Virus record (IMG/VR): IMGVR_UViG_2698536392_000012
Location: 1-13,914 of that record
DNA from: a virus
Lineage: Duplodnaviria; Heunggongvirae; Uroviricota; Caudoviricetes
Direction: 5' to 3' (one strand)
Length of the DNA stretch: 13,914 nt
Shown here: piece after piece, positions 1 to 13,914 of the stretch
Layout: each line of letters starts with the position of its first letter
How positions within the stretch are numbered: the stretch's first letter is position 1
Program-made: the position numbers and the translations under genes
The notes under the pieces: model-generated
Seen by the model: the letters and a program-made list of their open reading frames with translations, nothing else
The model's database searches: none
What the model was told of the DNA's origin: nothing

Positions 1-41
1 AACCACCAGCGCGTTTACTGTACTGGCGTGATTTCAGTCAT

Positions 42-64: not shown

Positions 65-145
65 TGTAAAAAATCTTCTAACGTCAGGCATAAAACGCCC
101 ATCGTTAGGGCAAATTTACCACAGATTCGGGAAAAATCAACAAAG

Positions 146-967
146 CTATCTGGTCACCTTTTTCAGTTGTTGTTCTGCCCATGCTTCTTCAATATCAAAC
201 TGCACCACCAGCGTATCGTAAAAACGTTTAACTGTTTTTTTCCATGTATCAAGAGATATGGCATCGGTTACATTACATATGGCATTAAATGCCTCCGTTG
301 AAGGTAATCTTTCATAGCCACGACCACCACAACGCTGGCAGTCTCTGATAACAGGCATACCACGTTTTACCGACTCTTCACGATGAATGGCAACACCGCG
401 CCCACGACAATCTTTACAGGCAGTGGATACCTCTCCCTTCCCTCCACACTCCGGACAGGCAACTTTTACCACCTCCCTGACTTTTTTCCATTCCTCCCAG
501 TAAGACGGATACACGCCTTTTGTGCACTTTGCCCACACTGGCGGCTTACCATCCGGATACTGGATCTTGTTTGTAAAAACCTCGCTTTCAATAAATTTTT
601 TTCCGTGACAACAGGGGCACTGTTTTTTGCTCGCCGCGCTACGGGCATAATCTTCAAACGCATACGAAGCCATAATACGCATCACTGCCGGTTTTATTTC
701 TGCCGGGAGTTTTCTTAACGCCGCCACGCGATCACACCGACTGAGTGCATATTCTGTCAGCAATTCTGTTGCCCGCTCTCTGTCATTCATACTAATGCCC
801 ATTTTCCCAAGGAACGCAGAAAACCCCATCTCAGCCCAATTCTGTGTCATGCCCTGCGCGGCCATCACATCAGTGATACTCAGCGTATCTTTCGACGTTG
901 AGGCCGATGCATCAGTCAGGCCGGGGGATTTTGGGGAGTAGTATTTCGGTAAATCTTCCAGTTTCAT
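146..967 (-). CDS. Phage antitermination protein Q family (late gene activator)
   Basis: 273 aa, ATG start. Several CxxC/CxxCxGxG zinc-finger motifs (CPCCHGKK, CPECGGKG, CKDCRGRG, CQRCGGRG). Last gene of the early-right operon, directly after rusA with an ATGA start/stop overlap, as for the Q-like antiterminators of Qin-type prophages. Confidence 0.7.
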   Translation of the reverse strand: MKLEDLPKYYSPKSPGLTDASASTSKDTLSITDVMAAQGMTQNWAEMGFSAFLGKMGISMNDRERATELLTEYALSRCDRVAALRKLPAEIKPAVMRIMASYAFEDYARSAASKKQCPCCHGKKFIESEVFTNKIQYPDGKPPVWAKCTKGVYPSYWEEWKKVREVVKVACPECGGKGEVSTACKDCRGRGVAIHREESVKRGMPVIRDCQRCGGRGYERLPSTEAFNAICNVTDAISLDTWKKTVKRFYDTLVVQFDIEEAWAEQQLKKVTR

Positions 968-1344
968 TTTTTGACCTGCCCTTCAAGCATTATGGGGTAA
1001 ATTTTCACCCCCAGACGTCCACCAGATACTGGCTGAGCACGAACGATATTGATTTCATCAAACTGCTCATCGTCCATTAGCAACCCCGCATGCGTCAGCG
1101 CATCCAGCGGCGCTTTCAGAATATTGTCCAGGTCACGGCGGCGCTTATCCGGTGGCTCGGCAATAATCTTTATCGCCAGCCTTCCGGACAGGCTTAATTT
1201 CAGCCGCTGCTGGCGAACAATAAGCGCCACAGCCCGGCGATAACGCTCACCGGCTTTTGATACAAAATATGTGTTGCCACGACGTCGCCAGTAAGTATTC
1301 ACCGTCGGCGGGTAAGGCAAAACAAATTCTATGCGTTCAGTCAT
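964..1344 (-). CDS. rusA: Holliday junction resolvase RusA
   Basis: 126 aa; from recall it resembles E. coli RusA (matching motif RRRDLDN, similar length). Typical nin-region position upstream of Q. Confidence 0.85.
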   Translation of the reverse strand: MTERIEFVLPYPPTVNTYWRRRGNTYFVSKAGERYRRAVALIVRQQRLKLSLSGRLAIKIIAEPPDKRRRDLDNILKAPLDALTHAGLLMDDEQFDEINIVRAQPVSGGRLGVKIYPIMLEGQVKK

Positions 1345-2403
1345 TCATGCTTTCCACTTCAGGACACCCGAATTTCTCGCGTGCATTAAAAAACGAATCA
1401 GCAACAACAGCTGGCTGCCGTGTTTTTCTTCAAAATCTTTTACCCCGGCGTGCAGTTCGTTATGACATTTACGGCACAGCGGAATAACAAACAAATCATC
1501 AGCCTTTGTTCCCATCCCTCCCAGTCCATGACCAATGATGTGATGCGGATCATCTGCCTGATTACCGCACGTCATGCATTTCTGCGTTTTTACCCAGCGC
1601 GTGTATACAGGCATCTCTTCCCGTTGTGGTTTCTGGCGCTGGAGATACTGAGCCGGAGATTCCGGATCAACGGCAATGCTGACCACCGCCTTTTCCTGTG
1701 ACGGGATTTGTTGCTGGTGGACGTGAGGCAACGGCGCAAGATTTTTTGTGCGCTGCTTCAGTATGCTGGTGGCGGTCTGCTCTCCCGGTACGATGTCGCT
1801 TTCGCGATACACCGAGTGGATTTTTTCCGCACGTAACCCCAGAGAACGACGCAATACTGCCTCCGGAAGCGCGTCCGCCACCTGATTGCAGACCGCCCAC
1901 CAGGATAATTCAGCCAGCGACAATTCCCGCTCCTGCGTGCCATTCATTGCATGGCGTATGACGTCAATCATCCATGCTGACAGGTTTTGATGAGCAAGTT
2001 GCTCGAGTGATTCGGAGGTCTGGTCGCGCAGCTGGTTGTCGCAGTGCCAGCACAACACCATTGCGCCGGTACCATAACGGTGAATGACGGTTTCACTGTG
2101 GTGATAATCGCCGTGTGGCCACTGGCAGGATTTAACATGGCGCAGTAACCAGTCAGACAATGCGCCAGCGCCACCAGCAGCACGAATCACTCGTTCGTCG
2201 CTGAAAAATGGCAGTAATGATTTATCCTCCGCCAGCGGCTGGCGAACGGCAGGAACGACCCCGGACGACAGATTACGCATGCTTTTCGGTTCCGGCTCCA
2301 CCAGTACCCGGGTATTGTGGAATACCGGCATGGATTCACGGCCCGGCTTAACGATCACCAGCCCGAGTTCCGGTACCAGAACAGGTCGAAGTAATACCCG
2401 CAC
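1345..2403 (-). CDS. DUF968/YdfU-like prophage protein with C-terminal Cys/His (HNH-like) motif
   Basis: 352-aa ORF. C-terminal CMTCGN...HHIIGHGLGG...CRKCHNELH zinc/HNH-like motif, as recalled for YdfU-type proteins. The ORF-track start is a GTG; the true start may be an internal ATG (residue 25 or 42). The stop abuts the rusA start. Confidence 0.55.
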   Translation of the reverse strand: MRVLLRPVLVPELGLVIVKPGRESMPVFHNTRVLVEPEPKSMRNLSSGVVPAVRQPLAEDKSLLPFFSDERVIRAAGGAGALSDWLLRHVKSCQWPHGDYHHSETVIHRYGTGAMVLCWHCDNQLRDQTSESLEQLAHQNLSAWMIDVIRHAMNGTQERELSLAELSWWAVCNQVADALPEAVLRRSLGLRAEKIHSVYRESDIVPGEQTATSILKQRTKNLAPLPHVHQQQIPSQEKAVVSIAVDPESPAQYLQRQKPQREEMPVYTRWVKTQKCMTCGNQADDPHHIIGHGLGGMGTKADDLFVIPLCRKCHNELHAGVKDFEEKHGSQLLLLIRFLMHARNSGVLKWKA

Positions 2404-2404
2404 G

Positions 2405-2683
2405 TTACCTCCAGATGCGTTGCTGGAATGTGCGGGACGGACGCGGTGGGCGTTCAGAGTAAGGAAGCCTGACGGAGATTATCCAGTGACGATAATCGAG
2501 GCTGAGGGCTTTCTTAATCCCGTATCCGTGTCTGCGGTAGCACTGAATTAGCCATTCAGCTTGTTCTTCAGTACATGGGGGATGCTGGTACCAATCAGAT
2601 TTGAATGTGCGGGAACGCCGCCCGTGCCTGCTGGCAAAGACAGCTGAATTATCAGAATTGTGTGATTTGGTATTGTGCGCCAT
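2405..2683 (-). CDS. Hypothetical nin-region protein (92 aa from internal ATG)
   Basis: The ORF-track start at 2764 lies inside the terminator hairpin, so the ATG at 2683 (MAHNTKSHNS...) is the more plausible start. Basic, Cys-containing, no recognised domain. Could correspond to the small rem-like gene found here in Qin-type prophages, but I cannot confirm this. Confidence 0.4.
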   Translation of the reverse strand: MAHNTKSHNSDNSAVFASRHGRRSRTFKSDWYQHPPCTEEQAEWLIQCYRRHGYGIKKALSLDYRHWIISVRLPYSERPPRPSRTFQQRIWR

Positions 2684-2760
2684 CGTCTTTCTCTGCTGGC
2701 GCAGCAGGTGCCAGTTGTTCAGGCTGACGTGCGAATTGTAAACCAGAATGCCAGGAAAAA

Positions 2761-2782
2761 ACAAAACCCGCCGAAGCGGGTT
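2761..2782. terminator. Bidirectional intrinsic terminator hairpin (copy A of a 22-bp direct repeat)
   Basis: AACCCGC-cgaa-GCGGGTT stem-loop flanked by an A-run upstream and a T-run downstream, so it can terminate on either strand. Identical 22 bp (ACAAAACCCGCCGAAGCGGGTT) recur at 4109-4130. Confidence 0.55.
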
Positions 2783-2798
2783 TTGTCAGTACTGAACA

Positions 2799-2948
2799 TC
2801 AAGCTGCGTGCTTGCCACTACAACTGCAAAGTGGGATCGGGAAAGGCTTCCCTTTTTTCGCGTGGCGCATTACACCATCTACACACACAGAGTAGCGAAA
2901 AATGATCTCACATGGACAGCCACATTTGCGACAGGTACCCATTGCCAT
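2799..2948 (-). CDS. Possible small Cys-rich protein (about 49 aa from internal ATG)
   Basis: ORF between the ImmA stop and terminator A containing CRKCGCPC and CSCSG motifs. Weak RBS and the ORF-track start is GTG, so this is low confidence. Confidence 0.2.
   Translation of the reverse strand: MAMGTCRKCGCPCEIIFRYSVCVDGVMRHAKKGKPFPIPLCSCSGKHAA
2838..2858 (+). terminator. Possible plus-strand intrinsic terminator
   Basis: GGGAA-aggc-TTCCC hairpin followed by TTTTTT on the plus strand. It lies inside the small minus-strand ORF and may block antisense read-through. Confidence 0.3.
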
Positions 2949-3115
2949 GATTTCGTTTTCCCTGCTCACCTGTGAATCCACACAGGTTGCACTTTGTTGG
3001 GAGAACCACTACACTTCGCTTGTCTACAAAAAGTGTTGTGATTGGATTATCTCCATACACTACGGAATGTGTTAGCGCACTTTCCGTCCCTAAAAGCCCT
3101 GTTAGCGCAGGGCTT

Positions 3116-3592
3116 TTACATATAAAAATCGAACGACATCTGTTGTGTTCTCACGCCAATTGTTTCCAGTACGATATCCGCAAATGTATCTGCCTGCCAT
3201 TCTGCATCCTCAATACGAGTAGGTTCTTTAACTGAAAAGTGTAAAACTGCTTTGTGTCCAAGAAGCAAATGACCTAGCTCGTGGAAGATAACAGCAAGTG
3301 CATGCTCTTCCCCAAGGCAAGCATTCACATATATTTTATTGGGAACCGTAATTGTTAGAGAAGCGGGGTCACAATGTCCGATAGTTAGATCATACGTCAG
3401 AGCCTCCCACTCTTTGTCGGTCCTGACGTCAAGAGTAACCCCATAAATTGACAGGCTTTCAAAGAACATATCATAACGCTTTCTTTTGCGCTTTGAGGCT
3501 GTAAGACCAATAGCATTACAGAAGTTTATAGCTCTGTAGGCTATTTCTTCTTCTTGCATCGGTGACACCCTGTTACCTCTCATTTGATACAT
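3116..3592 (-). CDS. ImmA/IrrE-family (COG2856) Zn metallopeptidase
   Basis: 158 aa with HELGHLLLGH (HEXXH) and a downstream EDAEWQADTFA motif, the usual third zinc-ligand region of ImmA/IrrE peptidases. Strong SD (GAGGGG) inside the 3' end of the upstream HTH gene; 2-nt intergenic gap. Confidence 0.7.
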   Translation of the reverse strand: MYQMRGNRVSPMQEEEIAYRAINFCNAIGLTASKRKRKRYDMFFESLSIYGVTLDVRTDKEWEALTYDLTIGHCDPASLTITVPNKIYVNACLGEEHALAVIFHELGHLLLGHKAVLHFSVKEPTRIEDAEWQADTFADIVLETIGVRTQQMSFDFYM

Positions 3593-3594
3593 AA

Positions 3595-3954
3595 TTACCC
3601 CTCATTGTTATTAATCTTTTGCAATAAATCTGCAAAACTCTTTAGCTGTTCCGGCGTAAACTGCGACTTAGCGAATCCCGCTACAAGCATTTTCTGTTGC
3701 TGAGACAAACCGTTTACTGGAACTGAGTCATTCGCAACTGCCGCTAACTCCTGTAACCCTTCAATTTCTACACCTTTGGCCTTGAAGTAAGAATCAATCT
3801 TCTTAACCCACTTCAGAGGTATTTTTTTGCTACCAGTTTCTAAACCGCTAAGAAACGCTGGCGTAGTGCCCAGTTCTTGAGACATAGTCAGAAGAGTACT
3901 GTCAGTATCGATCCTCGCTTTTCTAACGGCCTTACCGAATTCAGTGAGTGCCAT
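3595..3954 (-). CDS. XRE-family helix-turn-helix transcriptional regulator (ImmR-like partner of ImmA)
   Basis: 119 aa. N-terminal HTH (LLTMSQELGTTPAFLSGLETG). SD GAGGA 8 nt upstream of the ATG, with an AT-rich promoter-like region further upstream. Confidence 0.75.
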   Translation of the reverse strand: MALTEFGKAVRKARIDTDSTLLTMSQELGTTPAFLSGLETGSKKIPLKWVKKIDSYFKAKGVEIEGLQELAAVANDSVPVNGLSQQQKMLVAGFAKSQFTPEQLKSFADLLQKINNNEG

Positions 3955-4108
3955 GATTTTATCCTCAATTTGTTGATTTAGCAGACTTGCCTAACGCAAG
4001 CCTGATGGGCGCTTAAATTCTAATTCCTAAAATTTACCATATACGAAAGCAAAGTAAACCTTTTTAGTTAAAAAAATCTCCTTTAAGGGAATTTTTTTCA
4101 CAAAAAGA

Positions 4109-4130
4109 ACAAAACCCGCCGAAGCGGGTT
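4109..4130 (-). terminator. Intrinsic terminator hairpin (copy B of the 22-bp direct repeat), terminating the hok transcript
   Basis: Same AACCCGC-cgaa-GCGGGTT hairpin as at 2761-2782, followed on the minus strand by TTTGTTCTTTTTG. Located about 70 nt downstream of the hok stop. Confidence 0.5.
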
Positions 4131-4198
4131 AAGTGCGGGTGCGTTGAGGATGCCTGACACATCAGAGGTGGCGAGGGATTTCTCCCCCGCCAGGTCTC

Positions 4199-4354
4199 TT
4201 ACTCCTCAGGTTCGTAAGCTGTGAAGACAGCGACCTCCGTCTGGCCGGTTCGGATTCGTACCTCGCAGAGGTCTTTCCTCGTTACCAGTGCCGTCACTAT
4301 GACGGTTAAACAGATGACGATCAGGGCGATTAACATCGCCTTTTGCTGCTTCAT
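4199..4354 (-). CDS. hokD: Hok/Gef-family type I toxin (HokD/RelF-like)
   Basis: 51 aa MKQQKAMLIALIVICLTVIVTALVTRKDLCEVRIRTGQTEVAVFTAYEPEE, recognised from recall as HokD/RelF-like. SD AAGGAG 9 nt upstream. The ORF-track in-frame upstream extension (to 4411) is probably not used. Confidence 0.85.
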   Translation of the reverse strand: MKQQKAMLIALIVICLTVIVTALVTRKDLCEVRIRTGQTEVAVFTAYEPEE

Positions 4355-4598
4355 AGCCTGCTTCTCCTTGCCTTTCGGCACGTAAGAGGCTAGCCTACAT
4401 GTGCAAGTCATAGATATGGCCTCAGATTAATGTTAAGCGTCTTGCCGGACGCGTAATGTTAACTGGGGCTTTTCTCTGTCTGCCTTACGGCGGCATGCCC
4501 GAGGCAGACAGCCTCAAGCACCCGCAGCAATTCTACTTAACTCTCGCTTTACAGCAAACCGTTTTTGCCCGATATGGGAATTCCCATACGGAATGAAT

Positions 4599-4703
4599 TC
4601 AGTTCCCCAGGCGATCCATCAAAAACACAACCAGGCAGTAAACACCCACAACAGCAATAACAGCCAGAGCGCCTTCCATTACCAGTGAAATATCATCCGA
4701 CAT
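4599..4703 (-). CDS. Small hydrophobic peptide (34 aa), candidate small membrane protein or type I toxin-like ORF
   Basis: MSDDISLVMEGALAVIAVVGVYCLVVFLMDRLGN: acidic N-terminus plus one predicted TM helix. Very strong SD (AAGGGAGGG) 3-4 nt before the ATG, and promoter-like hexamers upstream. Not in the ORF track because it is under 60 aa. Confidence 0.35.
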   Translation of the reverse strand: MSDDISLVMEGALAVIAVVGVYCLVVFLMDRLGN

Positions 4704-4812
4704 ATTCCCTCCCTTGGTGTGAATTCCGGCGAACGTTTTTACCCCCACCGACAAATAACATATACTAGAAAAGCAATAGCTATAGCAACGCCTGCAAATG
4801 CATCGGGCCGGC

Positions 4813-5646
4813 TCATTGGTGCGCCCCCTGTATCGCTTCTACTGCGATCTGACTGGCGTATTTGTTAATGGTAACGATAAGTTCTTGCTCGGCCTCATCC
4901 AGACAACCACCGATACCTCGCCTGTCACCTTCAGAAGCATCGAAATCTGCACGAACCCTGGCGACCTTCAGGATTGCGGACAACACCTCATCAGGGATTG
5001 CCGGAGAGTTGGTTGACGTTTCCGAGGTTATCCGAAAATTATTGGTTGACGAATTCTTATTTTCCCGAAAGTTTTCGGCATGAAGCATGGCGGTGTTATA
5101 CCCATCCGCGAAAATCTCTGCTTCTTCGTTATTCAGTTCGGCACCAAGTTTAAGCGCAATAGCTTTTGCCATTGAGGCGGTAATTTGATGGCATGGCTGA
5201 CGTCCATGAAGCATGGCGTCGCTCCGCTCTATGCCATCCAGCGCAATTCGAAGCGCATGAATTGTAGTAATGCTATCGTTTGGGGTTATTCCGTATCGTT
5301 CGAATACAGCGATATGGTTGCGCATAATCGCAGGTGTAAGCTCTTTGTAAGCAAGAGCAAGAGGTCCAGATACATCGTTCAGCACTACCGTCATCGGTGA
5401 GGCGGCGTAGACTTCAATAATCCCAGTATCAATAGGCCATTCCCCATCCTTGATATAGTAACTTGTTCCGTCAACTTGCTGTTCTACAATGTGGAAAGCA
5501 CCTATTGGTTCTGCTTCCAGCGATGCCAGTGCAATTTTGAATAACTCGCCCTCTACCCGTGCCATCCCTGAATTGGGGTAGCATTTCGCAATCGCTATTT
5601 TTAATTTGGCTTCTTCGATTAATTTCTCTTTGGTTAATTCAGTCAC
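4813..5646 (-). CDS. Hypothetical protein (277 aa), unknown function
   Basis: Long ORF with a GTG start preceded by a CCGCCC-gaaa-GGGCGG hairpin. No recognised catalytic motif. Co-oriented downstream of the 70-aa and 119-aa genes. Confidence 0.55.
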   Translation of the reverse strand: MTELTKEKLIEEAKLKIAIAKCYPNSGMARVEGELFKIALASLEAEPIGAFHIVEQQVDGTSYYIKDGEWPIDTGIIEVYAASPMTVVLNDVSGPLALAYKELTPAIMRNHIAVFERYGITPNDSITTIHALRIALDGIERSDAMLHGRQPCHQITASMAKAIALKLGAELNNEEAEIFADGYNTAMLHAENFRENKNSSTNNFRITSETSTNSPAIPDEVLSAILKVARVRADFDASEGDRRGIGGCLDEAEQELIVTINKYASQIAVEAIQGAHQ

Positions 5647-5681
5647 TTTTCATTACCGCCCTTTCGGGCGGCCTCCTGACA

Positions 5682-5894
5682 TTAATCGTTGTGATAACTC
5701 ATAGCTTCATTTGCAGCATCAACTGGATCAACATCCCACCAGCAATAATTTGGGTCGACACCTTCAGGTGTCCACGGCTCTAATTCATTTTTTGCTACAT
5801 TCTCGTCACCAGTAATTTTAAAAATCTGCTCAGAGAATTTTTTTACCCACTCGTTATATTTTTCCGCGTTAATGGTTTTCTGTGTATTTAACAT
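5682..5894 (-). CDS. Hypothetical small acidic protein (70 aa)
   Basis: Strong SD (GGAGG) upstream of the ATG. Rich in D/E and W (WTPEGVDPNYCWWDVDPVDAANE). No recognised domain. Confidence 0.5.
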   Translation of the reverse strand: MLNTQKTINAEKYNEWVKKFSEQIFKITGDENVAKNELEPWTPEGVDPNYCWWDVDPVDAANEAMSYHND

Positions 5895-5939
5895 AGATAT
5901 ACCTCCGGTTAAGGATTAAATTTTATTTACAGTGCTGAT

Positions 5940-6299
5940 TTAATATTCAGTTCTGGCTTTTGTTGCCCTGCGTATCCGCGCTTTCGCGTTACGCTCAATC
6001 TGAATTAGCTTTTCTATATTTTTTCGCCTTTCCTGTTCCTCCTGGCGCAATAGCCTTACATCATCTGCCAGTCTGGTTTCTCTTTTAGCCACAGAGAGCA
6101 TCCAGTCAAACGGCTCCACAACTGCACCACAGATTTTGCAGCGGACCTGACGCTCTTTTTCGTCAACCCGGACAGAAGCGTGATGGCAGTATGGTCTTTC
6201 CGATGGCTCATAGAGAAAATTAACCTGATTACGTGGGTCATCCTCTTTTACCGGAAATAAAACGATATTGCTTAACTCATCTTCTGGTTTTATTTCCAT
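5940..6299 (-). CDS. Hypothetical zinc-ribbon protein with basic coiled-coil C-terminus (119 aa)
   Basis: SD AAGGAG 7 nt upstream. C-HH...CxxC spacing (CHHASVRVDEKERQVRCKICG) suggests a zinc ribbon. The C-terminus is Arg/Lys/Glu-rich and helical-looking. Confidence 0.55.
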   Translation of the reverse strand: MEIKPEDELSNIVLFPVKEDDPRNQVNFLYEPSERPYCHHASVRVDEKERQVRCKICGAVVEPFDWMLSVAKRETRLADDVRLLRQEEQERRKNIEKLIQIERNAKARIRRATKARTEY

Positions 6300-6356
6300 G
6301 GTCCTCTCCTTTGATGCGAATGCCAGCGATAATTGAAGCCTGATAGCTAATTTTAC

Positions 6357-6779
6357 TCACAGCCCCCCCCCCTGATAATTTCCCTGATAAAACGCCAGCA
6401 CTCGCTGCATAACTTCGCTCTTCCGGCACTCGCGACAGATTATATTCAGGCGCCTGTCGTAACGACGTATTTCTCCATCAGGTAATGACCAGATAAGGTC
6501 CGGATCAACCGCAGATGGTTTCTTCAGCTTTGCCCTTGAGAGCTTTTTACGGGCATTTTGCCAGTCCTTACGCGCCTGTTCAGACGGGAATAACCCGTAA
6601 CCAGAGTTGTATACATCGCCACTGGCAACCAGCTCTCTGGCCAGAACGCTCATCAGATATCTTGTTGCCCCAGTTTTAGCTTCCAGTTGTCGTAACGTCT
6701 CGCGCCCACTCTGGCGTACGAGTTCAAGAACCTGCCCTTTAATTTTTTCCCGCTCTTCTTGTGTAAAAACTTTTGCCAC
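6357..6779 (-). CDS. Hypothetical protein with putative winged-helix motif (140 aa), in the position of a replication accessory gene
   Basis: GTG start with strong SD (AGGAGG). Follows the O-like gene where lambda carries P. Too short for a DnaC/DnaB-type loader. The 3' end contains a G10 homopolymer on the coding strand. Confidence 0.55.
   Translation of the reverse strand: MAKVFTQEEREKIKGQVLELVRQSGRETLRQLEAKTGATRYLMSVLARELVASGDVYNSGYGLFPSEQARKDWQNARKKLSRAKLKKPSAVDPDLIWSLPDGEIRRYDRRLNIICRECRKSEVMQRVLAFYQGNYQGGGL
6363..6372. repeat. C10/G10 homopolymeric tract at the 3' end of the 140-aa CDS
   Basis: Ten consecutive C on the plus strand (G10 on the coding strand) encoding the GGG of the C-terminal ...QGGGL, ending 4 nt before the stop codon. 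Confidence 0.9.
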
Positions 6780-6819
6780 AAGCCCTCCTGAAAATTACCT
6801 CATGACCAGAAATACACAC

Positions 6820-7890
6820 TTACCCCCTGAAGCCCGGTGGAATTTCGGTATCCGGTTCAGAAATATGATTCACACAACGCTGGTTGTTCGTACCGCTTAC
6901 CGGGAGCAACCAGGGGTTTTCAAAATTCCGGTCCGGTCCAAAAAACGTCGTCGCTCGCTGAACAAATTCCGTTCCCGTTTTCCCGGTAGCCGCCAGGTAT
7001 CTTGCGTAACGCCTCACACCATCCAGCATGGCCTCTGGTGGCACCCCCTCGCGTAATCTGGCCTTCCAGGCACTGAAAGCGGATTTCTTCGGGTTTGCCC
7101 CAGCACGCAACGGGTATTCCCGCCAGACCTGTTCGAACACATCCGGATAATCTACTCGCCCCACAGGCTGCCCGGTGTTTTCCGGGACTACCCGATCGGC
7201 TTCCCGCTGAATGGCGGAATCGGCTTCAGGCTGCTGCAGTTGGTGTGATTGCTCCGGCCTTGCGGTCATCACCTGCTGCACAGCGCCCGAATCGGCTTTC
7301 AGCGCATACGCTGAATCGGCTTCCGGTGTCGTGCCTGCTGGCTGACCAGGATTGACGGTCTGAACATCCCCTGCCTGGTTCGTGGCGTTTTTTACGCCAT
7401 GGACCATAGTGTTTTGATCTTCTTGATCTGTATCTTTATCTGTATCTTTATCTGTCGTGACTCGTCGTGACATGTGCGTGACATTTCGTGACGCGCCGTG
7501 ACAATCGCCATTTTGTTCCCGCTTTCTTTCCCTCTCTCGCTGCGCCCTCTTGCGCTCTGCAGGAGATTTTGCGGTTTGCGAAATATTGCCGTTGTCCTCT
7601 TTCAGCACCTGGCGTTTTTCCCATCCAGTGATTAAATCACCATCAAGTACCCGCCCCTGCATCGTCTGCAAAATTGAATCAATTACCTCTTCTGTCACGT
7701 CGAGCGCACTTGCCAAATCTTCTGTCGTGACATCAATGTGACCTCGCGTGACATTTCGTGACGCGCTCACCAGGAGGTGGATATACACTGCCATCACTGT
7801 TGCAATTGGCTGCCCTGACACCCTGGCAATTGTTCGCCACTTAGGGTCATTTGGCATGTCATGCCATAATCTGAGCCAGGCGTTAGCCAT
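6820..7890 (-). CDS. Phage replication initiator / replisome organiser (lambda O-like), containing the putative origin
   Basis: About 356 aa from the ATG at 7890 (the ORF track starts two codons earlier at a GTG). The coding sequence contains clustered CGTGAC repeats (iterons), as in the lambda O gene. The C-terminal region (YPLRAGANPKKSAFSAWKARL...) resembles prophage replication proteins from recall. Confidence 0.65.
   Translation of the reverse strand: MANAWLRLWHDMPNDPKWRTIARVSGQPIATVMAVYIHLLVSASRNVTRGHIDVTTEDLASALDVTEEVIDSILQTMQGRVLDGDLITGWEKRQVLKEDNGNISQTAKSPAERKRAQRERERKREQNGDCHGASRNVTHMSRRVTTDKDTDKDTDQEDQNTMVHGVKNATNQAGDVQTVNPGQPAGTTPEADSAYALKADSGAVQQVMTARPEQSHQLQQPEADSAIQREADRVVPENTGQPVGRVDYPDVFEQVWREYPLRAGANPKKSAFSAWKARLREGVPPEAMLDGVRRYARYLAATGKTGTEFVQRATTFFGPDRNFENPWLLPVSGTNNQRCVNHISEPDTEIPPGFRG
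7427..7502. repeat. Putative origin iteron cluster 1 inside the O-like gene
   Basis: 12-bp tandem repeat TCTGTATCTTTA x2.4 (7427-7455) followed by five CGTGAC copies starting at 7456, 7466, 7477, 7487 and 7497 (10-11 bp spacing, one helical turn). Confidence 0.6.
7721..7766. repeat. Putative origin iteron cluster 2 inside the O-like gene
   Basis: CGTGAC/TGTGAC copies at 7726, 7738, 7747 and 7757. The 21-bp segment GCGTGACATTTCGTGACGCGC (7746-7766) is an exact copy of 7476-7496. An inverted GTCACG copy sits at 7694-7699. Confidence 0.6.
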
Positions 7891-7961
7891 ACTCACCTCT
7901 TCTGATACCGAATCTTTTTACTCACGAGTTGCCGGAAGCGATTCGATATGGCTATTGTCAG

Positions 7962-8387
7962 TCAATGTACTGCCACAGCATTTCCTGCCGGGCCACCACG
8001 ATTCATCTGATTGAAACCGGCGATTGCCACTGCGACAAAATCATCAGCGTCTCTCACCAGTCGCTCCCGCGTCTCCACCAGCTCCCGAAAATAAGCTGAA
8101 CTGTGGCTGCGCATTCTGGCCACCAGCAAAGGTGGCATTGCCTTTTCGATCGCTGGTAACAACGCCTGAATTTTTTCAACTGCATCAGGGGTGTCTTTCT
8201 CTACCCAGCGGAAAATTTTCTGGGTATTACGAGCCAGGGCTTCCGGATGGCTGTCGTCGTACAGTTCCGGGAACGTCATCCCCAGTTCGAAATAAGTCCG
8301 GGCTATTTCAGCTGCAGGAACTTTCTCACCATCAGGGTATGCCCAGGCATTCATCGCCATGCGGATGTGCTCATGCTTGATTTTCAT
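7962..8387 (-). CDS. YdaT-like protein (CII-position regulator of Rac/Qin-type prophages)
   Basis: 141 aa starting MKIKHEHI..., which I recall as characteristic of YdaT-family proteins. Its start overlaps the cro-like stop (ATGA), suggesting translational coupling. Confidence 0.55.
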   Translation of the reverse strand: MKIKHEHIRMAMNAWAYPDGEKVPAAEIARTYFELGMTFPELYDDSHPEALARNTQKIFRWVEKDTPDAVEKIQALLPAIEKAMPPLLVARMRSHSSAYFRELVETRERLVRDADDFVAVAIAGFNQMNRGGPAGNAVAVH

Positions 8388-8647
8388 GAATCAACTCCCA
8401 GCGCGGGTTGTGTGTTAGCCTGATAGTCAACAGGTATGCCATCGGTTGGGTTGGGGTAAGTACTGCTATCAATCTCGTGCGGGGTCACTACCCACCCTGT
8501 TGCTTCACACCAGCGTAAAACTTTCCCCCCCGTAAGTTTCGCCCGTCCAGTAATAACATGGCTTACCATCCCTTGGGTTACCCCAACAATTTCAGCAAAA
8601 TCTTTCTGGGTTATACGGGAATGATGCAAATATTCTCCAAGATTCAT
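8384..8647 (-). CDS. Cro/YdaS-like HTH DNA-binding protein (first gene of the early-right operon)
   Basis: 87 aa with HTH (ITQKDFAEIVGVTQGMVSHVI). SD GAGGT 5 nt upstream. Divergent from the repressor gene across an operator-containing intergenic region. Confidence 0.7.
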   Translation of the reverse strand: MNLGEYLHHSRITQKDFAEIVGVTQGMVSHVITGRAKLTGGKVLRWCEATGWVVTPHEIDSSTYPNPTDGIPVDYQANTQPALGVDS

Positions 8648-8679
8648 TGTTCACCTCATGTTATGTGACCATGAGCATT

Positions 8680-8739
8680 AATAGCATTGTTATTTTTAAA
8701 AGTAAATAGCATCGCTATTTCAAAGAGATTAATAATCTT
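8680..8739. promoter_or_regulatory. Divergent promoter/operator region (OR-like) between the cro-like and repressor genes
   Basis: Perfect palindrome AAATAGC-atc-GCTATTT (8704-8720), imperfect copy TAATAGC-att-GTTATT (8680-8694) centred 25 bp away, and a 13-bp palindrome AGATTAaTAATCT (8727-8739). Confidence 0.6.
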
Positions 8740-8754
8740 ATTAGAATTGAAGGT

Positions 8755-9255
8755 ATGAAAAGAAAACCCCTGTCAGAGATCGACCTGCAAGCCGCCCAGA
8801 GACTGAAAGAAATCTGGACGACGAAAAAAACTCAACTTGGGTTAACCCAAGAGCGTGCGGCAGAAATTCTGGGTTTTTCGACACAAGGGGCAGTAAGCCA
8901 TTATCTAAATGGTCAGACACCTTTAAATCTAGAGGCTGTTATCAAGTTCGCTGGGTTGCTACAAGTTCCGCCTGAGTCAATTAGACCAGATATGGCAGAC
9001 TTGTTACGAATTGTAAGGATGTACCCCCAAGAACTGCAGCAGGATAATGTTGTCGCTTTACCCGCAGAGATGGAGCAATCGGAAAACGAACTTCCGTTTA
9101 ATATAGAACCTATAGAGCGAGATTTGATCCAGACGTTCAGGGCTTTCCCAAAAGAAGACAAAGAGAAAATGCTTAAGGAAATGAAGGAGAAAAAAGAATC
9201 AATTGAAGAAACCGTTGCGCGGTGGCTAGAGGCGCAAAAAGGTCGTCGCGCCTAA
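8755..9255 (+). CDS. DicA/CI-like HTH repressor, probably a PaaR-type regulator of the downstream toxin-antitoxin pair
   Basis: 166 aa with N-terminal XRE HTH (LGLTQERAAEILGFSTQGAVSHYLNG) and no S24 peptidase domain. C-terminal helical region similar in style to DicA. Followed 17 nt later by the paaA-parE-like genes on the same strand. Confidence 0.7.
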   Translation: MKRKPLSEIDLQAAQRLKEIWTTKKTQLGLTQERAAEILGFSTQGAVSHYLNGQTPLNLEAVIKFAGLLQVPPESIRPDMADLLRIVRMYPQELQQDNVVALPAEMEQSENELPFNIEPIERDLIQTFRAFPKEDKEKMLKEMKEKKESIEETVARWLEAQKGRRA

Positions 9256-9272
9256 TCTGAGGAGGTTAGAAC

Positions 9273-9464
9273 ATGAGTACAGTCCTTTCCCCGATAATTT
9301 CAGAATTTGAAACAATCGAACAAGAAAACAGCTATAACGAATGGTTACGCACCAAAGTGGCAGCAAGCCTCGCAGACCCCCGTCCTGCAATTCCGCATGA
9401 CGAAGTAATGGCTGAAATGGAAAACCTTATTGCGCAAATAGCTTCGACGAACAGGAGTGAGTAA
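9273..9464 (+). CDS. PaaA-like antitoxin (ParE-associated antitoxin)
   Basis: 63 aa. The core SEFETIEQENSYNEWLR...SLADPRPAIPHDEV resembles PaaA2 of E. coli O157 prophages from recall. Strong SD (GGAGG). Its stop overlaps the toxin start (TAATG). Confidence 0.7.
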   Translation: MSTVLSPIISEFETIEQENSYNEWLRTKVAASLADPRPAIPHDEVMAEMENLIAQIASTNRSE

Positions 9465-9754
9465 TGCTGCCCATTTTATGGCTACCTTCTGCGCGTGATG
9501 ATTTGCGTCAGATCGTAGCCTATATTGCCAAGGAAAACCCTCCCGCTGCACGTAGACTAAAAATACGCATTGAAACATCAGTTTTGTCACTTTCTGAACA
9601 TCCTTACCTGTATCCACCAAGCGAAAGAGCTCTAGGCCTTCGTGAGATAGTGACCCATCCTAACTACATAATACTTTACCGAGTAACAGCATCTAACATC
9701 GAGATCGTAAATGTAGTTCACTCACGAAGGCAGTATCCAAACAAAAGCTGTTAA
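9464..9754 (+). CDS. parE: ParE/RelE-superfamily toxin
   Basis: 96 aa with the typical ParE pattern (W.P.A..DL..I..YIA..NP.AA, REIV, NIEIVNVVHSRR). Translationally coupled to the upstream antitoxin. Confidence 0.8.
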   Translation: MLPILWLPSARDDLRQIVAYIAKENPPAARRLKIRIETSVLSLSEHPYLYPPSERALGLREIVTHPNYIILYRVTASNIEIVNVVHSRRQYPNKSC

Positions 9755-9768
9755 TCATTCCTACCAAC

Positions 9769-9792
9769 AACCACCTTCGGGTGGTTTTTTTT
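9769..9792 (+). terminator. Rho-independent terminator of the repressor-TA operon
   Basis: AACCACC-ttcg-GGTGGTT hairpin followed by a T8 run, 15 nt after the parE stop. Confidence 0.8.
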
Positions 9793-9810
9793 CTTACCTC
9801 CAAAAAAAAC

Positions 9811-9849
9811 AATAGCATTACTATTTACACGATAAAATAGCAGTGCTAT
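9811..9849. promoter_or_regulatory. OL-like operator pair / leftward early promoter region
   Basis: Perfect palindrome AATAGC-agt-GCTATT (9835-9849) and imperfect AATAGC-att-ACTATT (9811-9826), 24 bp centre to centre. Same half-sites as the sites at 8680-8720. Confidence 0.55.
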
Positions 9850-10028
9850 TGTTTATTCATCACCCACCCACCCCACAGAATGCAGGGCAATACCTCGAGT
9901 TACCCGGCAGTGGCCAGGGGTTAAGTAGCCAGCCCGAGGCGTATGAACATGACGGCGGGAACACTTTGTATAACAGCGCAGCAGGTTTTTAGTTCCGCGA
10001 CCCGGCGTTAAGGGTAAATGAGGTCAAC

Positions 10029-10181
10029 ATGGATATGCTCAATCTTGGCAACAACGAATCTCTGGTATGCGGAGTATTCCCCAACCTGGACGGCACGTTC
10101 ACCGCGATGACGTATACCAGAAGCAAAACGTTTAAAACGGAAGCTGGCGCGCGTCGCTGGTTAGCAAGAAACTCTGACTGA
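10029..10181 (+). CDS. Small hypothetical protein (50 aa), first ORF of the pL-side operon (YdfA-like position)
   Basis: SD GAGGT 5 nt upstream of the ATG. MDMLNLGNNESLVCGVFPNLDGTFTAMTYTRSKTFKTEAGARRWLARNSD. Identity not confirmed. Confidence 0.4.
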   Translation: MDMLNLGNNESLVCGVFPNLDGTFTAMTYTRSKTFKTEAGARRWLARNSD

Positions 10182-10279
10182 TGAAGGTTAGTAATTAAAG
10201 AGTTCTCCACAGGCGAAGTGGAATACGTTCGCCGGACACGGGTAAGCATCCGGCATGCTCTTTAACAATCTGGGTATTC

Positions 10280-10726
10280 CTAACCACAAAGGAATCGCAT
10301 CAATTTGGATTTTGCAGACAGTTTCTCTTGTTGTTCTACGGAGATTCCTATTTTGATCTGGGTTTTTAAGATTGCGATATCTTTAAGCGACGACCAAATA
10401 TTATCATCTGTTTTTTCCAGGAGCTTTAACTGCATTTTCAATTCCGAATCGGAATATTTTTCTGCATCATCATAAAGCTGCAGATATTCTGCGGATTTTC
10501 TCATTGCGTTACCTGACTTTTGTCCGAATCCGTAAATCGTTTGAACGGTTGCTATCACAACAATGAGAACTCCAGAAACTTCAGGAATAAATCCACCAAT
10601 GACAGATGAACCGAGGATAATACTCACCACTGAGAGAAGTTTATCGAGACGACCAGTCGCTACAGAGAATAGTTGTTCAAGAAAATAACCATATAAAACC
10701 CTGTCAAGAATATCATCCCGGTCCAT
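10280..10726 (-). CDS. Two-TM membrane protein (148 aa), candidate superinfection-exclusion/abortive-infection protein (SieB-like position; SLATT-like architecture)
   Basis: Two adjacent hydrophobic helices (LLSVVSIILGSSVIGGFIPEV, SGVLIVVIATVQTIYGF) followed by a charged, coiled-coil-like C-terminus. AT-rich and convergent to the pL-side genes, like sieB in Rac. Confidence 0.55.
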   Translation of the reverse strand: MDRDDILDRVLYGYFLEQLFSVATGRLDKLLSVVSIILGSSVIGGFIPEVSGVLIVVIATVQTIYGFGQKSGNAMRKSAEYLQLYDDAEKYSDSELKMQLKLLEKTDDNIWSSLKDIAILKTQIKIGISVEQQEKLSAKSKLMRFLCG

Positions 10727-10785
10727 ATATCATCACCTGCTTGTTTGATTGTTGCTGTTCCCCCTCTCCTCTGAAGGAGCTGGAG

Positions 10786-10983
10786 ATGGTTTTGGTCGAA
10801 TGTTTTTCTCAGGTATATGTTTCCTGGTATTCGGAATGTCCGACCTGTCCGCAGGCTTACCAGTACCTGAACAATTCTTTTGAACCACCATATAAAACAC
10901 CTTCCTGTTGTTGGGGATATCCAGATTATACAGATTATACAGATTTCCTGTCGTTGGGGAACGACGGAAACCACCTCGCCTGA
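10786..10983 (+). CDS. Possible small Cys-rich protein (65 aa)
   Basis: Good SD (AAGGAG, 6-nt spacer). CxxC and CC motifs and a YTDYTD repeat encoded by a 9-bp tandem DNA repeat (10912-10936). Could correspond to the small ydfB/ydfC-type genes upstream of dicF, unconfirmed. Confidence 0.3.
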   Translation: MVLVECFSQVYVSWYSECPTCPQAYQYLNNSFEPPYKTPSCCWGYPDYTDYTDFLSLGNDGNHLA

Positions 10984-11210
10984 CGTGGTTAAAAGCAGGC
11001 ACACAACGCGAAAGCGTACGGCGAAGCTCTTTCCCTTAGAAGGCTTGTCGTTAGATTTCTTCGAACGTGCGCTTCCGGTTGTGGCAATCCGCGAAATGGC
11101 GCGGCGGTAAGTATGGCGGGGTTATTCCTTCCCCAGTTGAGGACACCGGGTTGTCAGGTTGACCATACGCTTAAGTGACAACCCCGCTACAACGCCCTCT
11201 GTTATCAATA

Positions 11211-11268
11211 TTCTGGTGACATTTGGCGGTATCAGTTTTACTCCGTGACTGCTCTGCCGCCCTTTTTT
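11211..11268 (+). ncRNA. dicF: DicF small regulatory RNA (ftsZ-targeting sRNA of Qin-type prophages)
   Basis: TTCTGGTGACATTTGGCGGTATCAGTTTTACTCCGTGACTGCTCTGCCGCCCTTTTTT matches the recalled E. coli DicF sequence nearly base for base, including the GGCGG/CCGCC terminator stem and T-run. Sits immediately upstream of dicB. Confidence 0.8.
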
Positions 11269-11438
11269 AAAAGTGAATTTTGTGATGCGGTGAATGCGGC
11301 TCAGCGCACGCGGAACAGTTAAAACCAAAAACAGTGTTATGGGTGGATTCTCTGTATCCGGCGTTAATTGTTAACTGGTTAACGTCACCTGGAGGCACCA
11401 GGCACCGCATCACAAAATTCATTGTTGAGGACGCGATA

Positions 11439-11627
11439 ATGGAAAAGTTATCATGTAATGCCAGCACGTCTGAACTTCGTTTCGAAATTGGCGTTATCAC
11501 TGGAGACAAAACATTTATTGAAGACGCCATTAAGCAGAGAAAACTCGAGCAGGACCTGTTAAATGAAGTATGCATTCCTTCAATGCTGGCTCGTCTGGAC
11601 CTGCTGCAAAAAGGATATAAACAATGA
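11439..11627 (+). CDS. dicB: DicB cell-division inhibitor (MinC-dependent)
   Basis: 62 aa; the motifs FEIGV, EDAIKQRK and CIPSMLARL align with recalled K-12 DicB at the same length. Downstream of dicF as in Qin. Confidence 0.8.
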   Translation: MEKLSCNASTSELRFEIGVITGDKTFIEDAIKQRKLEQDLLNEVCIPSMLARLDLLQKGYKQ

Positions 11628-11815
11628 ATACAACATTTGCACTCGTTCTGACAGTTTATCTTGTTTCCGGCGAATCTCTTGAGCTGGTGACTGGCTTATA
11701 CGGTTCAATGAAAGAATGCATGGCTGCAGCAGCAGAACAAAAAATTCCCGGTAACTGTTATCCGGTAGATAAAACTACTCACACTAATAATAACGAAATA
11801 CCGGCAGGACTTTAA
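11624..11815 (+). CDS. ydfD: YdfD-like small membrane/lysis protein
   Basis: 63 aa with N-terminal TM helix (FALVLTVYLVSGE) and a C-terminus ending ...KIPGNCYPVDK...EIPAGL, resembling YdfD from recall. Start overlaps the dicB stop (ATGA). Confidence 0.7.
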   Translation: MNTTFALVLTVYLVSGESLELVTGLYGSMKECMAAAAEQKIPGNCYPVDKTTHTNNNEIPAGL

Positions 11816-11908
11816 AACAGCACCGTAATTAATATCCGGTTTCATTTTTATATGCCAGCAATGGCAGGGATTTGTTCACCCTTAAATCTGTAATGAGGTT
11901 AAAACAAA

Positions 11909-13914
11909 ATGAGTAAAGTCTTTATTTGCGCCGCCATTCCGGACGAACAGGCAATAAAAGAAGAGGGCGCAGTTGCTGTAGCCACTGCCATTGAAGCCGG
12001 TGATGAACGCCGCGCCCGTGCCAAATTTACCTGGCAATTCCTGGAGCAATATCCTGCTGCTCAGGACTGCGCTTATAAATTTCTTGTCTGCGAAGATAAA
12101 CCCGGCATGCCCCGCCCTGCTATCGACTCCTGGGATACCGAATATATGCAGGAAAACCGCTGGGATGAGGAATCCGCTTCCTTTATTCCGGTCGAACCAG
12201 AATCCGATCCGATGAACGTCAATTTTGACAAGCTGTCCCTTGAAGTACAGAACGCGGTCCTGGTTAAGTTCGGTACATGTGAAAACATCACCGTTGATAT
12301 GGCGATTGACGCGCAGGAATTACTGCAGGAAGACGTTGCTACCTTTGACGGGCATATCGTTGAAGCACTGATGAAAACGCCTGAAATTAACGCTATGTAT
12401 CCGGAACGCAAACTGTTCGCTATCGGATGGGTTAAACACAAATGTAATCCGGGTGCCAAATGGCCCGAAATTCAGGCTGAATTACGTAACTGGAAAAAAC
12501 GGCAGGACGCAGAGCGCAAAGAGACTGGAAAATACACGTCTGTTGTTGATCTCGCCAGCGCCAGAGTCAATCAACAGAACACTGAAAACTCAGCAGGAAA
12601 AATCAACCCAGTCACTGCCGCCATTTGTCGCGAATACAAGCAGACATGGAAAACGCTGGATGAAGAACTGGCCTACGCTCTCTGGCCTGGCGATATTGAT
12701 ACCGGAAACATTGACGGCAGCATCCATCGCTGGGCAAAAAATGAAGTTATCGACAAAGATCGCGAAGACTGGAAGCGCATTTCCGCATCAATGCGCAAAC
12801 AACCCGATGCCGTTCGCTACGACCGTCAGACTATTTTTGGCCTTGTCCGTGAGCATCCGATCGACATTCACAAAGATCCCGTAGCACTGAACAAATACAT
12901 CACTGAATACCTGACTACCAAGGGCGTGTTTGAAGATGACGAAGGAACAAATCAGGGCACAGCTGGTACTCTCCCGTCACCAGTACCAAAAACTGATGCA
13001 GTGGAAACGGCAATGCCGGACAACGAAAAAACCGAATGCGAAGTGGAAGACGAACCATCTGTAGAGCGTGAGGGACCGTTCTACTTCCTTTTCACCGATA
13101 AGGACGGCGAAAAATACGGTCGCGCAAACAAACTTTCTGGTCTGGAAAAAGCACTGGCCCTGGGAGCTACGGAAATCACAAAAGAGGAATACTTCGCACG
13201 TAAAAACGGCACGTACTCAGGTTCACAACAAAATACTGGTGCATCTGACACGATCGCACAACCAGAGCCGGTAAAAGTTACCGCTGACGAAGTAAACAAA
13301 ATTATGCAGGCAGCCAATATCAGCCAGCCTGACGCCAATAAGTTGCTTGCTGTATCACGTGGTGAATTTGTTGCAGGGATTAGCGACCCGAATGATCCGA
13401 AATGGGTGAAGGGGATTGAAACCCGCGATTCAGTGAATCAGAACCAGCAAGAAACGGAACAGAACGGCCAGAAAGCGGAACAAAACAGCCCAAATGCGTT
13501 ACAAAACGAGCCAGAAACGAAACAACCTGAACCAGTAGCGCAACAGGAACCGGAAAAAGTCTGCACCGCCTGCGGTCAGACCGGCGGCGGCAACTGCCCT
13601 GATTGTGGCGCGGTGATGGGCGACGCAACATACCAGGAAACATTCGATGACAAGAACCAGGTTGAAGTTCAGGAAGACGATTCGGAGAAAATGGAAGGCG
13701 CTGAACATCCACACAAGGAGAATGCTGGCGGCAATCAGCATCACGATAGCGATAATGAAACTGGCGAGACGGCAGATCACTCAATTAAGGTGAACGGTCA
13801 TCAAGAAATCACATCCACCAGCAGGACGTGTGACCATCTAATGATCGACCTTGAAACCATGGGAAAAAATCCTGATGCCCCGATCATCTCAATAGGTGCA
13901 ATATTTTTCGATCC
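11909..13914 (+). CDS. recE: RecE-like exonuclease (exodeoxyribonuclease VIII family), 3'-truncated by the window end
   Basis: Open frame from the ATG at 11909 to the window end (missed by the ORF track because no stop lies in the window). The segment LLAVSRGEFVAGISDPNDPKWVKGIETRD...CTACGQTGGGNCPDCGAVMGDATYQETFD aligns with the recalled central region of E. coli RecE. The last residues (MIDLETMGKNPDAPIISIGAIFFD) look like a DnaQ/DEDD Exo I motif. Confidence 0.75.
   Translation, partial: MSKVFICAAIPDEQAIKEEGAVAVATAIEAGDERRARAKFTWQFLEQYPAAQDCAYKFLVCEDKPGMPRPAIDSWDTEYMQENRWDEESASFIPVEPESDPMNVNFDKLSLEVQNAVLVKFGTCENITVDMAIDAQELLQEDVATFDGHIVEALMKTPEINAMYPERKLFAIGWVKHKCNPGAKWPEIQAELRNWKKRQDAERKETGKYTSVVDLASARVNQQNTENSAGKINPVTAAICREYKQTWKTLDEELAYALWPGDIDTGNIDGSIHRWAKNEVIDKDREDWKRISASMRKQPDAVRYDRQTIFGLVREHPIDIHKDPVALNKYITEYLTTKGVFEDDEGTNQGTAGTLPSPVPKTDAVETAMPDNEKTECEVEDEPSVEREGPFYFLFTDKDGEKYGRANKLSGLEKALALGATEITKEEYFARKNGTYSGSQQNTGASDTIAQPEPVKVTADEVNKIMQAANISQPDANKLLAVSRGEFVAGISDPNDPKWVKGIETRDSVNQNQQETEQNGQKAEQNSPNALQNEPETKQPEPVAQQEPEKVCTACGQTGGGNCPDCGAVMGDATYQETFDDKNQVEVQEDDSEKMEGAEHPHKENAGGNQHHDSDNETGETADHSIKVNGHQEITSTSRTCDHLMIDLETMGKNPDAPIISIGAIFFD

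Follow-up and report, generated by a model that had tools for sequence, protein, structure and literature searches.

An initiator gene that carries clusters of short direct repeats within its own coding sequence raises the question of whether these repeats form a replication origin or serve some other purpose. In this study, we analyzed such a gene in IMG/VR virus record IMGVR_UViG_2698536392_000012 (Caudoviricetes), positions 1 to 13,914; this whole stretch of 13,914 nucleotides (nt) is hereafter called the window. The element is a Qin/Rac-like lambdoid prophage. Its initiator gene occupies positions 6820–7890 on the minus strand and encodes 356 amino acids from an ATG at 7890, which is the most likely start because homologs begin with MANAW; the open reading frame (ORF) lister placed the start at a GTG at 7896. 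Judged from the sequence, the region 7376–7762 is probably the vegetative replication origin of this prophage, located within the gene of its replisome-organizer-type initiator. The feature is most likely a well-supported predicted origin of a widespread phage replication module.

Two helix-phased iteron arrays in the initiator gene

The window contains 12 copies of CGTGAC, compared with 5.1 expected from shuffled sequences, and nine of these copies are confined to 7456–7762. Array B, the linker array (7456–7502, minus strand), comprises five iterons that read GTCACG on the sense strand (gene nt 389–435) and encodes CHGASRNVTHMSRRVT. On the plus strand, its CGTGAC copies start at 7456, 7466, 7477, 7487, and 7497, with spacings of 10, 11, 10, and 10 base pairs (bp). 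Array A, the N-domain array (7726–7762, minus strand; gene nt 129–165), has four units and encodes SRNVTRGHIDVT; on the plus strand, it consists of CGTGAC at 7726, 7747, and 7757 and a copy matching at five of six positions (tGTGAC) at 7737–7742. In the sense of the gene, the units start at nt 129, 139, 149, and 160 in array A and at nt 389, 399, 409, 420, and 430 in array B, so that array A lies upstream, at a distance of ~220 bp. All nine GTCAC(G) units of the two arrays share one orientation and are spaced 10–11 bp apart, with a mean of 10.25–10.3 bp. The GTGAC density amounts to ten sites in ~310 bp against 0.47 expected (Poisson P ~1e-10). The core GTCACG is asymmetric and recurs every 10–11 bp, not every ~19 bp with dyad symmetry.

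The two arrays are linked by a 21-bp exact duplicate, GCGTGACATTTCGTGACGCGC, located at 7476–7496 in array B and at 7746–7766 in array A. Either copy consists of two iterons and the intervening spacer, and the identity ends at both flanks with no further extension. A single inverted core (7694–7699; GTCACG on the plus strand and CGTGAC on the sense strand) is located ~30 bp 3′ of array A in the gene sense, in codons for LDVTE. It is exact in five of eight compared relatives and a five-of-six match or shifted in the remaining ones; among cultured phages, it is exact in Pseudomonas phage phi1 and a five-of-six match in Aeromonas phage pAEv1818.

The first-pass annotation of this DNA had reported two CGTGAC clusters with 10–11 bp spacing inside the initiator coding sequence, a 21-bp exact duplicate, an adjacent 12-bp tandem repeat, and repeated peptide segments. 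The sites, their spacing, and the duplicate were reproduced in our analysis, Tandem Repeats Finder recovered the tandem repeat at 7421–7455, and the translation of the minus-strand ORF contains the segments SASRNVTRGHIDVTT and GASRNVTHMSRRVTTDKDTDKDTD. The locus has at least three same-orientation, helix-phased repeats, an adjoining tract resembling a DNA unwinding element, and an initiator in cis, which is the anatomy by which an iteron-type theta origin is recognized.

An AT-rich tract and a palindrome beside array B

The last iteron of array B is abutted by an AT-rich tract (7418–7455), purine-rich on the sense strand, that consists of 2.9 copies of the 12-bp unit ACAGATAAAGAT and encodes the peptide DKDTDKDTD. 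Tandem Repeats Finder gave the unit as TCTTTATCTGTA (2.9 copies, 95% matches). The GC content of the tract is 0.325, equal to the lowest 40-bp windows of the initiator coding sequence. Among relatives (n = 67), the tract after array B has a mean AT content of 0.64 versus 0.46 gene-wide, and it is retained as GATAAAGATAAA in relatives from hosts of 60–63% GC. The repeated unit differs across relatives, being (A)GATAAA, GATACA, or GAGAAG, which yields DKDK, DTDT, or EEKR peptides, respectively. Gain or loss of the 12-bp unit accounts for the only internal indels in 81 near-identical Escherichia coli copies. We propose that this tract is a DNA unwinding element. Two GATC (Dam) sites, 10 bp apart, are present at its distal end (7414–7427, ttGATCttcttGATCtgt).

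Beyond the AT-rich tract is an imperfect palindrome (7376–7406) with 13-nt arms and a 5-nt A/T loop (T5 on the plus strand). It encodes a conserved (L/M)VHGEK.AS peptide (MVHG.K.A in the window) inside the disordered linker of the protein. The palindrome is kept as GGTTCATGGCG-A5-7-CGCCAGTGAACC in L210–L214, which are relatives at 47–58% protein identity and an N-domain chimera described below. No compensatory changes in the arms were seen among six sequences. The palindrome was scored as terminator-like on the strand antisense to the gene, and a consensus scan for promoters and terminators over 6700–9300 gave counts at chance, with one match falling on the palindrome. It could be a part of the origin, an antisense terminator, or a peptide motif. 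In lambda, a palindrome is present at the equivalent place.

Further along the disordered linker, ATCGGCTT (sense AAGCCGAT, peptide EADS) occurs in four in-frame copies at 7195, 7221, 7291, and 7317. Homologs retain EADS-like peptides in this region (7195–7326), and some are shorter by 8–32 residues. The repeated element may be either a DNA motif or a peptide motif.

The repeats are conserved as DNA

The GTCAC units use all three reading frames (2, 0, 1, 0 in array A and 1, 2, 0, 2, 0 in array B), and the hexamer GTCACG is translated as S-R, V-T, or G-H depending on the frame. We aligned the codons of eight lineages, i.e., the window and prophages of Aquitalea, Serratia, Bordetella, Stenotrophomonas, a Pseudomonadota metagenome-assembled genome (MAG), Chromobacterium, and Scandinavium, whose N-domains are 64–73% identical to that of the window protein. 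Third-codon positions are invariant at five of six sites inside GTCAC cores, compared with two of 12 outside them. In the aligned cores, Ser is always encoded by TCA, Val by GTC, and Thr by ACG, even in hosts of 60–63% GC, and the Arg codons between the cores vary (CGA, CGC, CGT, or CGG). Because the units lie in three frames and their synonymous sites are frozen, the repeats are a DNA signal and not a peptide repeat.

Family-wide conservation and iteron classes

For a family-wide comparison, we collected 43 loci from one-genome-per-species contigs, 160 loci from IMG/VR, four cultured phages, and five contigs encoding specific homologs. An unbiased test identified the hexamer best common to gene nt 100–215 and nt 300–500. 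A shared hexamer was found two or more times in each region in 67 of 82 genes but in 1.4% of dinucleotide shuffles, and three or more times in each in 43 of the 82 genes compared with none of 1640 shuffles. In 87 of 91 genes, the linker region contains an array with ~10-bp periodicity; 72 of the 91 (~80%) have the same 5-mer array in region A as well, and four have no periodic array. Array B has 3–6 units and array A has 2–6 units across the family, and the gap between them ranges from 174 to 290 bp (median 211).

The core sequences fall into several classes. GTCACG(C/A) is found in the window, many beta- and gamma-proteobacterial prophages, Pseudomonas phage phi1 (4+4 units), and Aeromonas phage pAEv1818 (4+3). 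Most environmental members have CGAACGC. GTAACGC is present in L012, L178, L179, L210, and L213, GTGACGC in L199, and GCAACGC in Ralstonia phage Firinga (5+4). The ...ACGC part is common to all classes, and the core is always identical between arrays A and B of one gene. The exact stretches shared between the two arrays of one gene have a mean length of 14.0 nt (maximum 39 nt); when two genes within one class are compared, the shared stretches are shorter (mean 10.8 nt). Concerted evolution keeps arrays A and B identical, and the 21-bp duplicate in the window is an ordinary example of it.

The iteron sequence and two-cluster layout had initially been regarded as specific to this element, which is refuted by their distribution. 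Of 5426 complete E. coli genomes, 2497 (~46%) carry the initiator gene with its repeats, some of them with 100% identity, and 72 of 91 relatives are two-clustered. The GTCACG two-cluster layout itself occurs in prophages of Aquitalea, Bordetella, Stenotrophomonas, and Chromobacterium, and in Pseudomonas and Aeromonas phages.

In many loci, the tblastn match is limited to residues 1–~140, and loci that share the N-domain and arrays differ in their C-terminal halves and neighboring genes. A natural chimera (P0045/L214) carries an unrelated N-domain (PHROG 1701/25210) on an AT tract, palindrome, and C-domain of the window type. Its repeats differ from those of the window, being 11-bp units of the GAAGGGGCT type in two clusters at corresponding places. 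The first cluster consists of (A/G)AAGGGGCT at gene nt 185 and 196 (nt 185–205), and the second of CGAAGG(A/G)GCT-type units at ~nt 449–480, directly before the purine tract. Since a different N-domain is accompanied by different repeats in this chimera, N-domain and repeats are exchanged together, and the arrangement in two clusters is found again.

One member, L017 (a Serratia MAG), has a linker insertion of ~100 residues where others carry array B; by eye only, the insertion resembles a small nuclease or a homing-endonuclease-type domain. The L017 initiator gene showed no clear iteron arrays.

The initiator protein

The initiator shows a full-length match to PHROG 3729, annotated as "replication initiation protein" (E 5.5e-258). 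Its N-terminal half matches PHROGs annotated as replisome organizer or DnaD-like loader, the "replisome organizer" matches having E values of 5.1e-6 and 2.2e-4, and its C-terminal half matches PHROGs annotated as replication or primosomal protein. NCBI records list the closest relatives under the name "phage replisome organizer", and "DnaT-like ssDNA-binding domain-containing protein" is also used for close relatives. A Pfam search with the whole protein gave no family at E ≤ 0.01, the lambda O family included; therefore, the initiator is not a lambda O homolog. The N-domain (residues 5–78) aligns with positions 1–78 of the 121-position profile of Phage_rep_org_N (PF09681) at E 0.12 and 12.8 bits, below the cut-off of 23.3, and the other Pfam matches to this domain are sub-threshold helix-turn-helix (HTH) matches. 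The C-terminal ~24 residues are similar to the end of host DnaT (a weak NCBIfam match and weak PDB sequence matches). Beyond this tail, neither the NCBIfam search nor the PDB sequence search with the initiator gave any match. On this sequence evidence, gene 6820–7890 encodes an initiator that is not a lambda O homolog and is probably of the replisome-organizer type.

An AlphaFold2 model was built from a 19-sequence alignment. The N-domain (residues 1–~100) contains helices at 2–11, 16–25, 29–49, 56–63, and 67–77, followed by a basic helix (110–126), a disordered linker (128–244), and a helical stretch (250–316) in the C-terminal domain, which spans 245–356 and includes the DnaT-like tail. A Foldseek search of the model against PDB gave no match at E ≤ 0.001, and therefore no structural family is assigned. 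The N-domain is helical and appears to be of a DNA-binding type. The codons of array A specify the final part of helix 3 and a low-confidence loop (49–55) before the last two helices of the N-domain, and array B with the AT tract encodes residues 129–160, within the disordered linker. The insertions and deletions of homologs fall exactly at these two sites, the array A loop and the array B/AT-tract linker.

The loop encoded by array A may have a further role. A single alignment column, corresponding to H51 in the R-G-H loop (residues 49–51) of the window protein, separates all GTCAC users from GAACG users. The residue following R-G is H in the GTCAC class, R, T, Q, or A in the GAACG class, V in the GTAAC and GTGAC classes, and N in the GCAAC class. 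Where array A exists, the correlation with H51 is trivial because the codon lies in an iteron. In five lineages (L011, L141, L158, L161, and L170), GTCAC iterons are confined to array B. The N-domains of these lineages are ~80% identical to those of GAACG users but only 54–59% identical to that of the window, and all five keep the His (CAC or CAT). It is conceivable, albeit a long shot in this small and phylogenetically entangled sample, that the loop codons of array A are both binding site and reading head, with the loop reading the variable core base. If so, a change in the array would alter the site and its reader together, which would provide a built-in route to new origin specificities and, through these, an escape from competition or exclusion between co-resident prophages.

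Comparison with known origins

The lambda origin is located inside gene O and consists of iterons and an AT-rich tract (PMC7466680), and the iteron number is polymorphic in Stx phages (four versus six; PMC7466680). The present locus resembles it in several respects: the predicted origin lies in the initiator gene between the N-terminal DNA-binding and C-terminal recruiting parts; direct repeats, an AT-rich tract with strand purine bias, and a palindrome follow one another in the direction of transcription; the repeat number is polymorphic among relatives; and the N-domain with its iterons forms a module separable from the C-domain. However, the initiator has no homology to O, and the 10–11 bp units with an asymmetric 6–7 bp core differ from the ~19-bp dyad-symmetric iterons of lambda. 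Unlike lambda, this locus has a second array inside the codons of the DNA-binding domain, and there is no P gene; the next gene is DUF977 here and a DnaC/IstB-like or DnaB-type helicase gene in relatives. The first-pass annotation had described the initiator as O-like and the arrangement as that of lambda. The iteron anatomy inside the initiator gene, next to its lowest-GC stretch, bears out the second description, but kinship with O does not hold (no Pfam match), and "O-like" is an analogy only, given that relatives are named "phage replisome organizer" and the best PHROG is 3729.

In phage SPP1, oriL lies in gene 38 and has repeats that are bound by the replisome organizer G38P and an AT-rich unwinding element (PMC6316719, PMC5737612). 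The window likewise has an initiator gene, probably of the organizer type, that holds its own repeats, predicted to be bound by the initiator, beside an AT-rich element. While the second G38P-binding region of SPP1, oriR, is ~13 kb away, the second array here is ~220 bp away in the same gene. The window element also differs from SPP1 in having no phage-encoded loader or helicase, and the similarity of its initiator to Phage_rep_org_N is below threshold, so that membership in the SPP1 replisome-organizer family is weakly supported. By analogy, the feature would work like lambda ori and SPP1 oriL. Its non-homologous initiator and its other type of iteron place it outside the lambda O/ori family.

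Iteron plasmids (P1 incC/incA and F ori2 incB/incC) also have two arrays of the same iteron, one adjoining an unwinding element and one apart. In contrast to these plasmids, the present locus lacks DnaA boxes and has both arrays within the initiator coding sequence, its initiator showed no relationship to RepA-type proteins in the tests made, and the context is that of a lytic or temperate phage. The distinctive features of the predicted origin are a conserved second array in codons of the DNA-binding domain, short asymmetric units spaced by a helical turn, and iteron classes that change together in both arrays.

Proposed initiation pathway and alternative explanations

We propose an initiation pathway based on this anatomy. 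The N-terminal domain of the initiator would bind the GTCACG units. As the five units of array B share one face of the DNA, the bound protein would oligomerize and distort the DNA, and the abutting AT/purine-rich 12-bp repeats (7418–7455) would melt. The C-terminal domain would then recruit the helicase. Since neither this element nor the viable phage Tritos has a loader or helicase gene, host DnaB with host DnaC may be used in both, or a DnaT-like route via the C-domain may operate. Transcription from an early rightward-type promoter would cross the origin, as in lambda. Array A, together with the inverted copy at 7694–7699, would be bound by the same initiator as an auxiliary element, contributing either to a looped or larger initiation complex or to a control or titration site. 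Our data establish the anatomy of the repeats, their constraint as DNA, their conservation in the family, the co-variation of the two arrays, and the exchange of repeats along with the N-domain. From these we infer that the initiator binds the units, that the tract unwinds, that the region acts as an origin, and what array A does.

In the best reading of the locus, array B and the AT tract would be the core origin, i.e., iterons and unwinding element, because nearly all genes (87 of 91) have the array and an AT/purine tract follows it wherever this was measured or inspected. Array A is considered auxiliary because it is present in ~80% of members, co-evolves with array B, and is not adjoined by an AT tract. 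Several points weigh against the assignment of an origin. The region and its surroundings have no DnaA boxes; the only TTWTNCACA matches are at 4094 and 6760, no more than chance would give. Neither Pfam nor structural searches gave a significant match to the N-domain, and its DNA-binding role therefore rests on PHROG names and weak HTH-like similarities. The linker array occurs without array A in 15 of 91 genes, so that the design can do without array A. Part of the linkage between the repeats and the N-domain is physical, not functional, since the repeats are located in N-domain and linker codons. The searchable literature contains no experimental binding or origin activity for any member of the family. 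Nor does it describe an origin of this kind, with much of the older phage literature outside its coverage, so that a prior description is possible. The database records examined have no origin annotation for the module.

The alternative that survives best, although we consider it unlikely, assigns array A to negative control. P1 and F have an iteron arrangement with a separate control locus (incA and incC, respectively), and array A could similarly pair with or titrate the initiator (handcuffing). Two arrays of one iteron, 174–290 bp apart and with only one beside the unwinding element, would suit such a locus, as would the dispensability of array A in some lineages. Copy-number restraint would nevertheless be of little benefit to a lytic phage, and the concerted evolution of the arrays fits cooperative binding equally well.

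It is less probable still, and to our minds rather doubtful, that the arrays are operators at which the initiator or another early protein blocks or attenuates transcription of the replication operon (an autoregulatory roadblock), with the origin located elsewhere. Iteron plasmids do autoregulate via iteron-like repeats, and array A, which has no adjoining AT tract and is missing in 15 of 91 relatives, fits a regulatory accessory. However, array B is almost universal, and the AT/purine tract that follows it wherever this was measured, which an operator would not need, is kept even in high-GC hosts. Moreover, the complete Tritos genome has no further GTCAC array.

We give little credence to the possibility that the repeats serve another factor, such as a host, partition, or packaging protein or the neighboring DUF977 and YdaT-like proteins. 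Two blocks of ~11-bp direct repeats recall plasmid centromeres such as R1 parC, but there are no partition genes, the terminase genes of Tritos are at the far end of its genome, DUF977, YdaT-like, and other neighbors are not conserved at loci that keep the arrays, and exchange of the N-domain changes the repeats. Finally, it is scarcely believable that the repeats are peptide-level repeats or products of replication slippage with no DNA function: although the 12-bp unit varies in copy number by slippage and the encoded loop and disordered linker tolerate insertions, all three frames are used with frozen synonymous core sites, the 10–11 bp periodicity is no multiple of three, and lineages that differ in the motif differ in both arrays alike. 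The first-pass interpretation, which placed an origin within the initiator gene, is probably right in kind.

Genomic context and distribution

The minus-strand operon of the window consists, in order, of a cro-like HTH gene (8384–8647), a YdaT/CII-like gene (7962–8387), the initiator gene, and a DUF977 gene (6357–6779), with a divergent repressor gene at 8755–9255. DicF, hok/sok, RusA, and a Q-like antiterminator are found near the operon. Rfam searches identified the DicF small RNA (sRNA) at 11211–11262 on the plus strand (77 bits) and the sok antitoxin RNA at 4349–4523 on the minus strand (111 bits), the latter adjoining a small hok-like ORF (4199–4411), and these matches confirm the Qin-like prophage context. 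A trio of GTGAC sites at 11175–11249 was considered as a distal site and rejected: two of the three are inside the DicF sRNA gene, and none is 10-bp phased.

The initiator gene is 99.1% identical in the isolated phage Tritos, whose complete genome is 46,360 bp. Arrays A and B are the sole GTCAC arrays in this genome, and no second distant array analogous to SPP1 oriR is present in its 46,360 bp. The initiator gene is the sole annotated replication gene of Tritos, with no helicase or loader gene annotated genome-wide. The module also occurs in Pseudomonas, Aeromonas, and Ralstonia phages and in prophages from many further Proteobacteria. The plasmid database contained only prophage-like or mislabeled records, with no sign of the module as a plasmid replicon.

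The gene following the initiator varies. It is DUF977 in the window and Tritos, an IstB/DnaC-like ATPase in L210–L214, which are relatives with the same C-terminal domain, an annotated replicative helicase in pAEv1818, dnaB in Firinga, and an annotated "replication protein P" in phi1. The order of the initiator and IstB/DnaC-like genes in L210–L214 is a layout like that of Rac ydaU-ydaV. In a near-identical copy from IMG/VR, L045, the 3′ end of the initiator ORF continues across a G-run into the DnaC-like gene that follows, which is probably due to a homopolymer frameshift or a sequencing error rather than a true fusion.

Implications for prophage replication

A defined origin would help to map prophage replication and to interpret the escape replication that follows induction. 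It would also be a basis for predicting incompatibility or cross-activation of co-resident prophages from their iteron class, and for constructing small phage-derived replicons of selectable specificity. The conserved layout in two arrays, together with at least five iteron classes that differ mainly at one or two core positions, would offer a natural series for studying how initiator and origin specificities co-evolve.

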